Part shown: one piece after another, positions 38,128-42,396 of the stretch | How the letters are laid out: each line of letters starts with the position of its first letter | How positions within the stretch are numbered: the first letter of the stretch is position 1 | Source: Bacteroidota bacterium | Lineage (GTDB): Bacteria; Bacteroidota; Ignavibacteria; UBA10030; UBA8401 | Reading direction: 5' to 3' | DNA: 64,000 bases | Assembly: GCA_030679145.1 (NCBI GenBank) | Contig: JAUXTU010000057.1 | Span: 1,220-65,219 of the forward strand | Made by a program: the position numbers and the translations under genes | The notes under the pieces: generated by a model | The model's database searches: none | Told to the model about the DNA's origin: nothing | What the model saw: only the letters and a program-made list of their open reading frames with translations

Positions 38128-39963
38128 ATGGCAAAGAAGAACCTTGAAGAATCAACCATTTCAATTGTTGATTCTGAAACCCCACTCGAAATTCCACAAC
38201 AAACTGAGTTTTATGATATTCCAACAAGATTTGGTTCTGTACCAGTAGATCAAGCTCCCCTTGGATGGACAATTGAAACTCGCCGACGTGAAACAAAGAT
38301 TACGAAATTTGAACACGCTTATCCTCGAATTTATTTACCCTTCCAAGAAGTACAGAGGGTTGAATTTGATTACGGAGATAAATTTGAGCCAACCGAATTA
38401 TTTCCAAAAGGTGCAAATAGGTTATTCTTTGGCGACAACCTTCACATCATGCGACAATTGCCCAGCAAAAGTATTGATCTGATTTATATTGATCCGCCAT
38501 TTTTTTCTGGCCGAAATTACAATGTGATATTTGGTGATAAAAACGAAGTACGTTCTTTCACAGATATTTGGGAAGGTGGAATGCCTGGATATTTAATTTG
38601 GTTGAATGCTCGTTTGTATGAAATGAAGCGACTATTAAAGGATACCGGTTCAATTTATGTTCATCTTGATTGGCATGCGATCCATTATGTAAAAGTTGAG
38701 ATGGATAAAATATTTGGGGTTGATAATTTTAGGAACGAAATTATTTGGGGTTATAAATTAGGTGGTAGACCAAAGGATGGATGGGCAAGAAAACATGATA
38801 ATATTTTGTACTATTTAAGAGGAAGTAAATTTACTTTCAACGCTGATGAAGTAAAAGTTCCATATGATAGCACTGGAGGATATATCTCTAGTGGAAGAAA
38901 AATGGTTGGCGACAAAGAGTATAAAATAGATCCTAGAGGAAAGATACCAGAAGATTGGTGGGATATTCCAGCTTTGAACCATATGGAAAAAGAGAGAATA
39001 GGTTATCCAACACAGAAACCAGCTAAATTATTAGAGCGAATAATAAAAGCATCAAGTAATGAAGGAGATGTTGTTGCTGATTTCTTTTGTGGGGGTGGAA
39101 CAACTCCTACGGTTGCTCAAAGTTTAAATCGTCGTTGGATAGCCTCAGATCAATCACGTATTGCTGTATCAGTTACGCAAGATAGAATAAACAGACTTGT
39201 TGAAGAAAAACTCGGGAAGTTATTTGTCGTGCCAGATTTTACAGTGGAAAATTGGGGAATCTATGAATCTCCGCGATTAGAAAAACTTCCAAAAAATGAA
39301 TTTAGAGAATTTGTTATCAGGGCATTTGGTGGAAAGTCGGAAAGTGTTTCTCCAAATATACACGGCGTGCGTTATGGTGTTCCGTTGTTTGTTGGTGAAC
39401 CTACACGCAACTCACGCATCACCAAAGATGATGTTGCAAAGTTTGCTGAAGCAATCTTTAAGGAACGTCGCACAAATTTTGGTGCAATGCTTGGTTGGAA
39501 TTTTGCCCCCGATGCAAGAAAAGCTGCAGAAATACTATCCGCACGTGAAAATAAACGAATAGATTTTGTTCGCTTAAATCTTGTTCGTTTGGAAGATGAT
39601 AATTATCGAGATCACATCACAACAAAACATAAAGATTACAATCAACTCCTCAGTTTTATCCAACCGCCGGAAGTTCGAATTTCGTACGAACGTATTAGCA
39701 AATTGAAATATCGCTTTGACGTTTCCGAATCTGTCAGTTTAAACAAAGATGGAATCATTGCTAATGTGCAATGGGATTTTGATTATAAAAATAGATTCAG
39801 TTCTTCGGAAGGTTTTGCTTTTCTTCGCGATAAAAAATCAGGCAAACCCGTTTTAGTTGTTGAATATGAATTTTCAAGTGCAGGAAAAAAGAAGATTGCG
39901 TTTTCGGTTCAAGATGACCAAGGTGGTGAGCGTACAGAGATCATAGAAATTGAGGTGAAGTAA
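38128..39963 (+). CDS. Beta-class N6/N4 DNA methyltransferase (type III Mod-like) with C-terminal extension
   Basis: LIYIDPPF (motif IV) precedes DFFCGGGTT (motif I); YPTQKP..LLERII; start reassigned to ATG 38128 (GGAG RBS). Confidence 0.9.
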   Translation: MAKKNLEESTISIVDSETPLEIPQQTEFYDIPTRFGSVPVDQAPLGWTIETRRRETKITKFEHAYPRIYLPFQEVQRVEFDYGDKFEPTELFPKGANRLFFGDNLHIMRQLPSKSIDLIYIDPPFFSGRNYNVIFGDKNEVRSFTDIWEGGMPGYLIWLNARLYEMKRLLKDTGSIYVHLDWHAIHYVKVEMDKIFGVDNFRNEIIWGYKLGGRPKDGWARKHDNILYYLRGSKFTFNADEVKVPYDSTGGYISSGRKMVGDKEYKIDPRGKIPEDWWDIPALNHMEKERIGYPTQKPAKLLERIIKASSNEGDVVADFFCGGGTTPTVAQSLNRRWIASDQSRIAVSVTQDRINRLVEEKLGKLFVVPDFTVENWGIYESPRLEKLPKNEFREFVIRAFGGKSESVSPNIHGVRYGVPLFVGEPTRNSRITKDDVAKFAEAIFKERRTNFGAMLGWNFAPDARKAAEILSARENKRIDFVRLNLVRLEDDNYRDHITTKHKDYNQLLSFIQPPEVRISYERISKLKYRFDVSESVSLNKDGIIANVQWDFDYKNRFSSSEGFAFLRDKKSGKPVLVVEYEFSSAGKKKIAFSVQDDQGGERTEIIEIEVK

Positions 39964-39965
39964 TA

Positions 39966-42059
39966 ATGCAAAATGCCTTTTTACGCTACGAACAAGATGT
40001 AAAACAATGGGTTGATGCAGGTTTTCCAGATGTAAACCCTTTAACTCGAGATTTTCTTGAGCATTTACGTCGAGATGGTACACCACGAAAATTATGGAAA
40101 CATCAACAAGAATCTGTTTACCGTGCAATCTATGCATACGAATTGCTTCAAATGAAAAATATTTTGTTAAACATTGTAACAGGGGGAGGAAAGACTGCAA
40201 TTATTGGAGCAATTATTTCTTGGCTTAAATACTGTCACGATATCCATAAGTTTTTGATTTTGTGTCCTAATACGATTGTGCGTGATAGATTGGAAGATGA
40301 TTTCACTGACACAAAAGTATTTAGAGATTTCGATTTCTTCCCGAGTGGAACAGAACATTTTAAAAATGAACTTGGTTTGCATCTCCTTGAATCGGGATCA
40401 ACACCTCAAGGAATTTTAGAAAGTGGGATTGTCCTTGGAAATATTCATCAATTATATCAATCTAACATAAACGGCAAACGCAATCTTGCTTACATGATGA
40501 ATTTTGTTGATCATCTTGCTGTCTTTAACGACGAAGCACATAATACTCCCGCTGCAGAGTATGATAACACACTTTTTGCATTATCTCCAAAGTGCAAATT
40601 CCGACTCGACACAACCGCAACACCAGATCGTGCAGATGGAAAAACACCCGACTCAAAAATGATCTATGAGTATGGCATTGCAGACGCACAATCAGAAGTT
40701 CCACCGATTATAAAAAGTATAGTTGTTTATCAACCAAAACTCTCGTCTGTTCAACTTACATACACAAATCCTGAAACAGGTGAGAAGCGTACTGTTGATG
40801 AAATGGACAAAGAGTTTGAGAAAATTGAAAAAGGGTTATCAGCGACACAATGGGTAACAGATCCTGATCCAATGCGGAAACAAATAGGTATCGCACTTGA
40901 GCGATTAGAAGAACAAAAACGAAGGGCAGTGAGTATTGGCAATGGAGAATATAATCCAATTCTTTTTGTAGTAGGAATTTGTATCAAAGACGCAAAGGCG
41001 GCTGCAGAAATGTTATCATTAACCAAAGAGAAGGGTGGCTTTGGAGTTAATACTGTTGTGCTAACGGAAGAGTCATCTGAAGACGATCGTTTGCTTGCTG
41101 GAATTATTGGAAAAAAGGGGAAAGCCTTAGAGGAGACAAAGAAAAACCTTGAACGAAAATATAGTTTAAGTAAAGCGAAAGAACTAATTGAGCGGGGTAG
41201 TAAGCTTGAAGCGGTTGTCAGTGTATTGATGTTAAGAGAAGGTTGGGATGTTCCAGCAGTTACCGTAATTTTACTCCTTAGAAAATTTTCTTCACGCGTT
41301 TATGGTCAACAAGTTGTTGGGCGTGGATTACGATTGAATATTCGTGGAGAAGATGCACAAGAATTTTGTGCTATTGTAGACCACGAAAAACTTAATCATC
41401 AATGGCTTTGGGATATTGTAGGTGCAAAAATCAGAAAGGATGTAGATCAGGGAAATCTGTTCGGCGATGATGATTTGCCTCCTAAAAGAAAATCACAGGT
41501 ATTAGATAAGCCTGAAAATATCATTGAAATACCTGAACCAGAAGAAGCTGAGGAAGCGGACTTTAGTGATCTTGAAGATTTGAAAATTGTTGAAGGTGAT
41601 TATCCTAATTGGCAAGCACTATTAAACAGTTTTGAATATGGTAATGATATAGAAATATCAAAAGTAGAGATAGAAAGCGTTAAAGGCACAAATTTATTTG
41701 GTGACGGTTTTACAGAAATATCGAATGCACCAACATTGGGAAGAGTTCAGAAATTGGAAAAAGAAATTTCAAAAGAAGAACTTGTTGAAGACTTAAAACA
41801 CACAATAAGAGACATCGCAGACATTTTACTTTCAGAAGAAGGAATAGGTTCACACGAACTTGGCTACTTGTATAATGTGCTTATGGATCATGTTCAACAA
41901 AAAATGCTTGAAGGTAAAAGTGCGGGTCTTGCAAACATTGAATCGTTAAAACATGCGATTAGACAACGAAGTGTAGTTACTGGCAACTTTAGAGAAAAGC
42001 CAGGGCTTGTTGCAAGTATTGTCAAATATAGAAAGGTATTATCTAATGCCCACAAGTGA
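39966..42059 (+). CDS. SF2 helicase-like ATPase, type III Res-like, lacking a C-terminal nuclease
   Basis: VTGGGKT, NDEAHN, TATP, MLREGWDVP, QVVGRGLR; no PD-(D/E)xK motif seen at the C-terminus. Confidence 0.85.
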   Translation: MQNAFLRYEQDVKQWVDAGFPDVNPLTRDFLEHLRRDGTPRKLWKHQQESVYRAIYAYELLQMKNILLNIVTGGGKTAIIGAIISWLKYCHDIHKFLILCPNTIVRDRLEDDFTDTKVFRDFDFFPSGTEHFKNELGLHLLESGSTPQGILESGIVLGNIHQLYQSNINGKRNLAYMMNFVDHLAVFNDEAHNTPAAEYDNTLFALSPKCKFRLDTTATPDRADGKTPDSKMIYEYGIADAQSEVPPIIKSIVVYQPKLSSVQLTYTNPETGEKRTVDEMDKEFEKIEKGLSATQWVTDPDPMRKQIGIALERLEEQKRRAVSIGNGEYNPILFVVGICIKDAKAAAEMLSLTKEKGGFGVNTVVLTEESSEDDRLLAGIIGKKGKALEETKKNLERKYSLSKAKELIERGSKLEAVVSVLMLREGWDVPAVTVILLLRKFSSRVYGQQVVGRGLRLNIRGEDAQEFCAIVDHEKLNHQWLWDIVGAKIRKDVDQGNLFGDDDLPPKRKSQVLDKPENIIEIPEPEEAEEADFSDLEDLKIVEGDYPNWQALLNSFEYGNDIEISKVEIESVKGTNLFGDGFTEISNAPTLGRVQKLEKEISKEELVEDLKHTIRDIADILLSEEGIGSHELGYLYNVLMDHVQQKMLEGKSAGLANIESLKHAIRQRSVVTGNFREKPGLVASIVKYRKVLSNAHK

Positions 42060-42396
42060 ACATGGAGATTTTGAAAACCCTACAAAGTCAGCGTATTCCG
42101 TAGAGCGTTATGAATCAAGTTGGGAACTTGAATACATGAGAAAATTAGAGAGAGACAAAACAGTAGTCAAATGGACAAAGAATCACGGAATTACAATTGA
42201 GTTTATTACTGAAGCGGGAAATAAACGCGGTTACCGTCCTGATTTTTTAGTTGAAAAAGTTGATGGTGTAAAAGAAATCCATGAGGTAAAAGGCACACAT
42301 TTTCTTGAAAATCCTGACACTATTCGAAAACATGAGCGTGCTGGAACTTGGTGCAGGCAACGAGGGATGAATTTCATTGTAGTTACAAAAAAATAA
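42046..42396 (+). CDS. Stand-alone PD-(D/E)xK endonuclease (TnsA N-terminal/Res-nuclease-like)
   Basis: YESSWE..YM..LE, YRPDFLV, EVKG; ATG 42046 with GAAAGG RBS overlaps the helicase end by 14 nt. Confidence 0.8.
   Translation: MPTSEHGDFENPTKSAYSVERYESSWELEYMRKLERDKTVVKWTKNHGITIEFITEAGNKRGYRPDFLVEKVDGVKEIHEVKGTHFLENPDTIRKHERAGTWCRQRGMNFIVVTKK

Follow-up and report, generated by a model that had tools for sequence, protein, structure and literature searches.

A conserved three-gene, type III-like restriction-modification operon with a predicted nuclease encoded apart from the ATPase

Introduction

In restriction-modification (R-M) systems of type III, the Res subunit depends on Mod for the site, and cleavage requires ATP and two inversely oriented, unmethylated asymmetric sites and takes place approximately 25 to 27 bp away. 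It is still under debate how sliding of the motor, once triggered by ATP, brings about activation of the nuclease. Here, we analyze an operon at positions 38128 to 42396 of a 64,000-nucleotide (nt) stretch of DNA from a Bacteroidota bacterium (positions 1,220 to 65,219 of contig JAUXTU010000057.1, assembly GCA_030679145.1); this whole stretch is referred to as the window. The operon codes for a Mod methyltransferase, a superfamily 2 (SF2) ATPase, and a separate small protein with the motifs of a PD-(D/E)xK nuclease. It is a real three-gene R-M operon and a natural variant of a known defense system, and neither an error nor a new kind of system.

The closest described systems differ in how motor and nuclease are distributed over polypeptides. 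The canonical type III enzymes EcoP15I and EcoP1I have the composition Mod2Res1 (structure 4ZCF; PMC4490356). Some type III systems possess a third gene, which encodes an extra SNF2-type ATPase 5' of mod and not a separate nuclease (PMC8259958). In CglI and NgoAVII, according to two reports, the SF2 motor (H) and the nuclease (R) are distinct polypeptides in one complex; the R subunit of CglI has its own site-recognition domain, and its H subunit has Z1 and C-terminal domains (PMC5737866, PMC5861437). We found no published account of a split type III Res in the searchable literature, REBASE being outside this search.

Results

Organization and conservation of the operon

The operon and the elements that flank it are all located on the forward strand:

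38128..39963, +, mod (methyltransferase), ATG at 38128, stop at 39963, 611 amino acids (aa)
39966..42059, +, res-H (SF2 ATPase), ATG at 39966, TGA at 42057-42059, 697 aa
42046..42396, +, res-N (predicted PD-(D/E)xK nuclease), ATG at 42046, stop at 42396, 116 aa, +1 frame
42016..42059, +, coupling junction, with the Shine-Dalgarno (SD)-like GAAAGG (42032-42037) and the nuclease ATG (42046) within the last ATPase codons
42416..42450, +, terminator-like hairpin at the operon end, consisting of CGCCGAG, an 11-nt loop, and CTCGGCG, followed by TTTTCATTTT; T-run
37904..38127, +, structured 5' leader RNA, identified by its fold z-score, by copies upstream of other mod genes, and by covariation

The three open reading frames (ORFs) are co-directional and tightly packed. 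The ATPase start lies 2 nt past the mod stop, and the nuclease ATG lies 14 nt before the ATPase TGA, resulting in an overlap of 14 nt, with GAAAGG located 9 to 14 nt 5' of this ATG. The hairpin at the operon end was read directly from the sequence; the automatic hairpin scan was limited to loops of up to 8 nt and therefore did not list it. The original prediction, made from the letters of the DNA, had described an ATPase that ends without nuclease motifs and a 116-aa ORF in the +1 frame with its own ATG, a GAAAGG ribosome-binding site, and the motifs ESSWE, YRPDFLV, and EVKG. All of these features, together with the coordinates of the ORF, were verified in the sequence.

We then scanned one genome per prokaryotic species, which yielded at least 562 loci, and analyzed the best 80 of them. 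The ATPase was full-length in a single ORF in 63 loci, of which 61 had enough downstream DNA to be informative. In 60 of these 61 loci, the nuclease was a separate ORF directly behind the ATPase, and a fused ATPase-nuclease was found in none; Mod was encoded upstream on the same strand in 59 loci and was directly adjacent in 41. The identity of the ATPases with that of the window ranged from 38 to 91%. The hosts included bacteria (Bacteroidota, Fibrobacterota, Verrucomicrobiota, Chloroflexota, Planctomycetota, Patescibacteria, Actinomycetota, and one Mesorhizobium isolate) as well as archaea (Nitrosopumilaceae, Woesearchaeota, Micrarchaeota, and Thermoplasmata). More than 100 stand-alone homologues were retrieved for each of the two proteins. 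The best 120 ATPase homologues were mostly 660 to 703 aa long, with a few of 550 to 588 aa, and none was long enough to contain a fused nuclease, while the best 120 nuclease homologues had 115 to 129 aa (nearly all of them 115 to 118) and stood alone. A plasmid collection contained only distant relatives (22 to 33% identity), and viral contigs contained one close relative. We consider it practically certain that the split is genuine and far beyond chance; it is old, and the three-gene layout is widely conserved over bacteria and archaea.

Relationship with type III restriction enzymes

In profile comparisons, both the ATPase and the nuclease matched single-chain, type III-class restriction enzymes best, and the order of the matching segments is colinear. 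In the PADLOC REase_III model PDLC03648 (871 positions), the ATPase corresponds to positions 305 to 376 and the nuclease to positions 737 to 827; in NF046055 of NCBIfam (BPTD_3080 family restriction endonuclease, 970 positions), the corresponding segments are 530 to 616 and 849 to 940. Unlike the two proteins studied here, these enzymes are single chains, and the identity is only about 22 to 31%. The same colinearity was obtained with a fused 953-aa Res protein (locus L087) whose gene follows those of Mod and an SNF2 ATPase on a plasmid of Ketogulonicigenium, which is the layout of the three-gene type III systems mentioned above (PMC8259958). With hhalign, the ATPase family profile aligned to aa 72 to 493 of this Res (probability, 98.7), and the nuclease family profile aligned to aa 799 to 887 (probability, 95.8). 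Because the ATPase and the nuclease are colinear with the motor and the C-terminal nuclease of fused Res proteins, their genes are best interpreted as the two halves of one restriction enzyme and the operon as a split-Res relative of type III systems. The colinear fused models and the conserved layout bear out the earlier proposal of a type III-like Mod/ATPase/nuclease system in which the nuclease is a true third gene.

A number of properties are shared with type III systems, namely, (i) the mod-then-res order in a tightly packed operon, (ii) a beta-class Mod with a variable central segment that contains a putative target-recognition region, (iii) an SF2 motor of the ResIII type with invariant motifs I, II, III, and VI, and (iv) a PD-(D/E)xK nuclease that is C-terminal of the motor in gene order. 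The major difference is that the nuclease is a separate, coupled 116-aa protein and not the C-terminal domain of Res, so that Res is not a single polypeptide. We consider it likely that the operon is a functional three-gene ATP-dependent R-M system related to type III, with the Res function divided over two polypeptides.

Mod matches the Pfam family PF01555 (N6_N4_Mtase; 6e-46) and has the beta-class motif order, with motif IV (DPPF) ahead of motif I (FCGGGTT, corresponding to FxGxG). The DPPF sequence suggests, from general knowledge of motif IV, that the product may be N6-methyladenine. Mod is matched by PADLOC models of both MTase_II and MTase_III, including one MTase_III model (PDLC03633) that covers aa 97 to 459 (6e-51). 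In PDB sequence matches, its compact core (aa 97 to 359) aligns continuously to the small type II beta-class enzymes M.RsrI, M.MboIIA, and CcrM, and the EcoP15I Mod aligns only in part to the catalytic core. In beta-class and type III methyltransferases, the target recognition domain (TRD) is located between the motif IV-VIII and motif X-I blocks. A conservation profile of 50 homologues placed the least conserved stretch of Mod between these blocks, at aa ~200 to 290, and this segment is the likely TRD, which would recognize the DNA. Variability of this kind in the central part is typical of diversifying specificity. The C-terminal 250 aa form a conserved domain for which no Pfam match was found.

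The only Pfam domain of the 697-aa ATPase is ResIII (aa 43 to 222); Pfam detected no nuclease domain. In a comparison of 13 divergent homologues, motifs I (TGGGKT), II (NDEAH), III (TATP), and VI (QVVGRGLR) showed no variation. The EcoP15I Res matched the ATPase only around motif VI (E = 0.017). The AlphaFold2 model was poor, with a predicted local distance difference test (pLDDT) score of 58.5, and its structural matches were generic SF2 translocases, including SauUSI and HsdR, so that it supports nothing beyond an assignment as SF2 translocase. The confident C-terminal part of the model (aa 603 to 690) is all helical; this helical bundle (aa ~603 to 690) is specific to the family and does not align to the fused L087 relative.

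Several findings weigh against the assignment to the type III class. (i) The Mod core is nearer to M.RsrI, M.MboIIA, and CcrM than to the EcoP15I Mod, with a short TRD and the extra C-terminal domain. (ii) The ATPase remains far under the curated cutoffs, with 80 bits versus 800 for NF046055 and 28.8 versus 564 for PRK15483. (iii) The nearest relatives of the nuclease domain outside its family are homing-endonuclease-like or small stand-alone proteins and not Res. (iv) Restriction, methylation, and complex formation are predictions for every member of the family, and the surface by which the nuclease would dock on the motor is a conjecture because the ATPase model is poor. In addition, no full-length match to the curated Res and Mod models (PRK15483, NF046055, and PADLOC) was obtained, although one MTase_III model does match Mod as described above, and the PADLOC REase_III matches of the ATPase span only about 50 to 70 residues; for the canonical type III operon of locus L090, these models gave full-length matches (REase_III, 2e-145; MTase_III, 1.5e-126).

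According to an alternative, the operon is a defense or epigenetic module that does not work as a type III system but translocates and cleaves in the manner of type I or ISP enzymes or of CglI, contains an ATPase and a nuclease that act on modified or foreign DNA independently of Mod, or has a Mod that is mainly regulatory. The remote similarity to canonical Res and Mod, the type II-like Mod core with its additional domain, the family-specific C-terminal half of the ATPase, and the presence of inserted genes between Mod and the ATPase in some loci (L005 and L011) would all be in agreement with this alternative. We nevertheless consider it unlikely, since Mod is upstream on the same strand, and mostly directly adjacent, in almost all informative loci, since type III-class restriction enzymes give the best profile matches to either Res part, and since a canonical type III operon (L090) carries the same leader RNA. 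As for CglI and NgoAVII, they are a precedent for a restriction motor and a nuclease on different polypeptides. In contrast to their R subunit, however, the 116-aa nuclease is a bare catalytic domain, too small to include a recognition domain, and the target is presumably recognized by Mod. The H subunits have a DEAD-Z1 architecture, whereas Pfam detected no Z1 domain in the ATPase but only ResIII.

The nuclease is a small TnsA-like protein

TnsA is the nuclease subunit of Tn7, and it works only inside a larger ATPase-containing machine. The 116-aa protein matches the Pfam family Tn7_TnsA-like_N (PF08722) with 42.5 bits, against a cutoff of 26.5, and gives a weak match to RE_endonuc, the Pfam family of the C-terminal nuclease domain of type III Res. 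The candidate catalytic residues of the PD-(D/E)xK site, E27, D66, E80, and K82, are conserved in 69 family sequences. The AlphaFold2 model (pLDDT, 80.5) was most similar in Foldseek searches to the catalytic domain of TnsA (1t0f/1f1z), with template modeling (TM) scores of 0.61 to 0.63 normalized to the query; a profile search against PDB sequences gave spurious WD40 matches only, the TnsA match resulting from the fold search. Both proteins are small PD-(D/E)xK subunits, and TnsA is the best structural and Pfam match. They differ in that the 116-aa protein lacks the C-terminal domain of TnsA, and their identity is ~19 to 21%. Among the called genes of the loci examined, there were no TnsB, TnsC, or other Tn7 genes, and the 116-aa nuclease is not a transposon protein. 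Like TnsA, it may act only within a larger ATPase-containing machine.

Residues 1 to 18 of the model are disordered. Within the N-terminal ~20 residues, G7, P12, K14, S15, and E20 are invariant, yet they are predicted to be disordered, and only ~5 of the N-terminal codons are constrained by the overlap with the ATPase gene. A profile search of 1.84 billion representatives revealed no SF2-fused relative among the best 150 matches, and the fused relatives found with libraries of hidden Markov models are more distant.

The similarity of the nuclease to proteins outside R-M systems raises the question of whether it is independent of the operon, for example, a homing-type endonuclease of selfish nature, a toxin, or a nuclease for repair, located downstream of the ATPase by position only. 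Its closest outside relatives are the TnsA-like domains of NUMOD3, zinc-finger, or Hint homing-endonuclease-like proteins and small stand-alone proteins, and the names assigned by annotation pipelines are generic ("hypothetical" or "TnsA endonuclease N-terminal domain" for the nuclease, as well as "DEAD/DEAH box helicase" for the ATPase). Such an independent role is very improbable given that, in 60 of 61 loci from two domains of life, the gene is strictly syntenic with and coupled to that of the ATPase, and given the correlated divergence described below, and the colinearity with the C-terminal nuclease of fused Res proteins. Furthermore, the protein itself lacks a domain for DNA binding or targeting, and the ATPase would otherwise be left without a nuclease.

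The nuclease gene is coupled to the ATPase gene and inherited with it

In 33 loci, the nuclease start and the ATPase stop overlapped by 14 nt, and in another 10 the overlap was 11 nt; most of the remaining loci had values of 4, 1, 0, -1, or -2 nt, and values of 8 and -5 nt also occurred. The ATGCCnnCnAGTGA junction of the window was found in 33 related loci, and an SD-like motif preceded the nuclease start in 61 of 68 loci. All three relative frames of the ATPase and the nuclease were observed, and in locus L050 the nuclease ATG follows directly after the ATPase stop in the same frame. This overlap pattern has the signature of translational coupling, which would result in co-production of the two proteins. 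In addition, the identities to the window proteins were correlated among Mod, ATPase, and nuclease (Spearman coefficients of 0.83 to 0.89, n = 45), indicating that the three genes are inherited as a unit. Taken together, these data point to the nuclease as a translationally coupled and co-inherited subunit. The suggestion that it can be dosed, swapped, or recruited separately, which formed part of the original prediction, is not supported in view of this coupling, of the presence of the same nuclease family in 60 of the 61 loci, and of the correlated divergence, which gives no sign of swapping.

In the window, as in most relatives, the two overlapping ORFs are in different frames, which would also be expected if a programmed +1 frameshift or read-through joined the ATPase and the nuclease into a conventional Res, making the system effectively two-component. 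As a general mechanism, this explanation is hardly credible. A conserved programmed frameshift to a fusion is unlikely because both the length of the overlap and the frame relation vary (14, 11, 8, 4, 1, 0, -1, -2, and -5 nt; three frames) and because of the in-frame ATG after the stop in L050. No slippery or shift-prone motif was seen at positions 42007 to 42059, in agreement with what had been noted initially, and the nuclease always has its own start codon and usually an SD-like motif. A chimeric query composed of the ATPase C terminus and the nuclease retrieved 13 fragments, none of which spanned the two parts, a weak result given that known nuclease homologues were also missed. The remaining explanation, that the split reflects an indel from assembly or sequencing or else a frameshift that recently inactivated a normally fused res and left a pseudogene, can be dismissed for practical purposes. 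Fused relatives do exist at low identity (L087), and some loci are clearly decayed. However, positions 41976 to 42398 are covered without a gap, and without an indel at 42000 to 42060, by contigs from the source metagenome run and from three further runs that contain related strains; the split is maintained in 60 of 61 loci down to 38% identity, and the refuting outcome named in the original prediction, one fused ORF in reads or close homologues, did not occur; hundreds of stand-alone homologues of 115 to 118 aa have invariant catalytic residues, and the nuclease ORF has its own ATG and SD-like motif.

The decayed copies comprise L015, L020, L026, L065, and L078, in which frameshifts or stops divide the ATPase into 2 or 3 ORFs, and L048 (3538-6992), in which Mod is truncated at its N terminus and the nuclease gene is missing. 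Eroding R-M systems usually look like this.

Variant and related loci

Four further observations concern the composition and spread of the cassette. (i) In locus L005 (2631-8338), from a metagenome-assembled genome (MAG) of Elusimicrobiota, Mod has only 440 aa, and three extra genes, one of which encodes a PIN domain, are located between Mod and the ATPase-nuclease pair; the operon may have been rearranged here or have received an insertion. Inserted genes also part Mod from the ATPase in L011. (ii) ATPases of cluster P0090 that are more than 90% identical were reported from MAGs of Proteobacteria, Deltaproteobacteria, and Chloroflexota, which reflects either a recent horizontal transfer of the cassette or binning errors. 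(iii) In runs X4 and X6, the contigs of related strains match the window only at positions ~41505 to 42398 and have unrelated sequence on both flanks, which suggests a mosaic structure or recombination within or around the cassette. (iv) Locus L086 (4803-7010), on a Priestia megaterium plasmid, encodes a distant ResIII/SWI2-SNF2 helicase of 621 aa, followed 12 nt later by a 109-aa ORF. This ORF has no Pfam or NCBIfam match, and there is no adjacent methyltransferase gene; the two may form another pair of a helicase and a small partner.

A structured leader RNA precedes mod

The 360-nt spacer 5' of mod contains a GC-rich element of roughly 225 nt, at about positions 37904 to 38127, with a folding z-score of -5.9 on the forward strand relative to shuffled sequence. 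Its parts are (i) a UUCG hairpin; (ii) a long three-part hairpin with an apical GCGCCCC-GAAA-GGGGCG; (iii) a terminator-like hairpin at 38040-38060 with a U run behind it (38061-38069); (iv) a helix in which a 5' TGTCTC pairs with GAGACA downstream of the terminator-like hairpin; and (v) a hairpin at 38104-38127 that pairs the GGAG just 5' of the mod ATG, an SD-occluding hairpin that is also seen in close relatives.

The core of this element was found in three metagenome contigs, two of which carry it 5' of homologous Mods and one, L090, 5' of a canonical type III mod-res pair that is unrelated. These copies served to build covariance models, which retrieved diverged copies directly 5' of mod in L008, L009, L010, L012, L015, L017, L063, and L067. 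In total, copies directly upstream of mod were located in 12 other loci, on the minus strand where indicated:

L007: 328-567; L008: 1697-1925; L009: 315-519; L010: 2766-2991; L012: 2922-3137; L015: 2938-3191
L017: 356-565; L063: 2772-3009; L067: 2646-2861; L088: 3237-3474 (-); L089: 122-355 (-); L090: 4817-5053 (-)

In the 12-sequence alignment, 95% of the cells were paired, compensatory changes were present in 46 of 67 pairs, and the covariation score was 0.57, versus 0.13 or less in slid controls, values that are somewhat inflated since the alignment was fitted to the model. That the RNA is on the mod strand follows from G-U pairs and from scores that are much lower for the opposite strand. 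A search of Rfam 15 at gathering thresholds and at permissive E-values returned no credible family, and we found no description of this RNA in the literature. The combination of a terminator-like hairpin, the TGTCTC/GAGACA helix, and an SD-occluding hairpin suggests that the leader is a candidate attenuator-type or riboswitch-like regulator of type III-class R-M operons.

The L090 operon itself (543-6146, minus strand) encodes a canonical Mod (557 aa) and a fused Res (865 aa) and adjoins a pair of genes for an XRE helix-turn-helix protein and an ImmA-IrrE protein (Peptidase_M78).

Genomic neighborhood

Three features precede the leader:

37196-37426, +, DUF2188 gene, matching the PADLOC candidate defense family PDC-S16 (4e-28)
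37491-37739, +, 82-aa Cas2-like gene, with sub-threshold similarity to Cas2 (22.8 bits versus a cutoff of 23.8)
37744-37772, terminator after this two-gene unit, parting it from the leader

We considered the DUF2188/PDC-S16 and Cas2-like genes (37196-37739) as possible parts of the system and rejected them: a DUF2188 homologue was present in 1 of the 80 loci and a Cas2-like gene in none, and a terminator lies between. This unit and the R-M operon form an island of low GC content (~0.36 to 0.38) between genes for ribonucleotide reductase and acyl-ACP desaturase. Further downstream in the window (44458-45222, +), there is an ORF of 254 aa with a hydrophobic N-terminal segment and a long tandem repeat rich in Pro, Thr, and Val; its neighbors are response-regulator genes and a gene for a type II secretion/type IV pilus ATPase.

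Discussion

The operon has the gene content of an R-M system, its catalytic motifs are intact, its two Res genes are colinear homologues of fused Res proteins, and the split, the coupling, and the operon are conserved over bacteria and archaea. From these sequence features, we infer complex formation, stoichiometry, cleavage mechanism, and phage restriction as follows. (i) Mod, with its variable central TRD, would find the target and methylate the host DNA, probably at N6 of adenine as judged from DPPF. (ii) The 697-aa SF2 ATPase would bind Mod and, like the Res motor to which it is homologous, start ATP-driven long-range communication along the DNA. (iii) The 116-aa PD-(D/E)xK protein with the TnsA fold would be the catalytic nuclease, produced through coupling in amounts roughly equal to those of the ATPase. 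(iv) It would probably be held on the motor by contact between its first ~20 residues, which are invariant but disordered, and the helical bundle at the C terminus of the ATPase. (v) The leader RNA with its terminator-like hairpin would probably attenuate or otherwise tune the expression of the operon.

A more far-reaching interpretation is that these operons, with at least 562 hits in genomes that represent species, form a distinct, ancient, and widespread class of ATP-dependent R-M systems in which a minimal TnsA-fold nuclease is detachable and docked by a conserved disordered peptide on a family-specific domain of the motor, with its engagement being regulated, for example, on collision of two motors, and in which a new riboswitch-like or protein-binding leader is shared with canonical type III systems. 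We regard this as possible but doubtful, and prefer the reading as a split-Res relative of type III systems.

The leader, if confirmed, would add a new type of element to those that regulate R-M operons. With motor and nuclease on separate polypeptides, each could be titrated, mutated, and imaged alone, and the split-Res family would thus offer a natural tool to study the coupling between motor and nuclease. Finally, since the database names are generic and neither the ATPase nor the nuclease is picked up by the curated type III models, several hundred R-M systems of environmental bacteria and archaea have probably not been recognized as complete.

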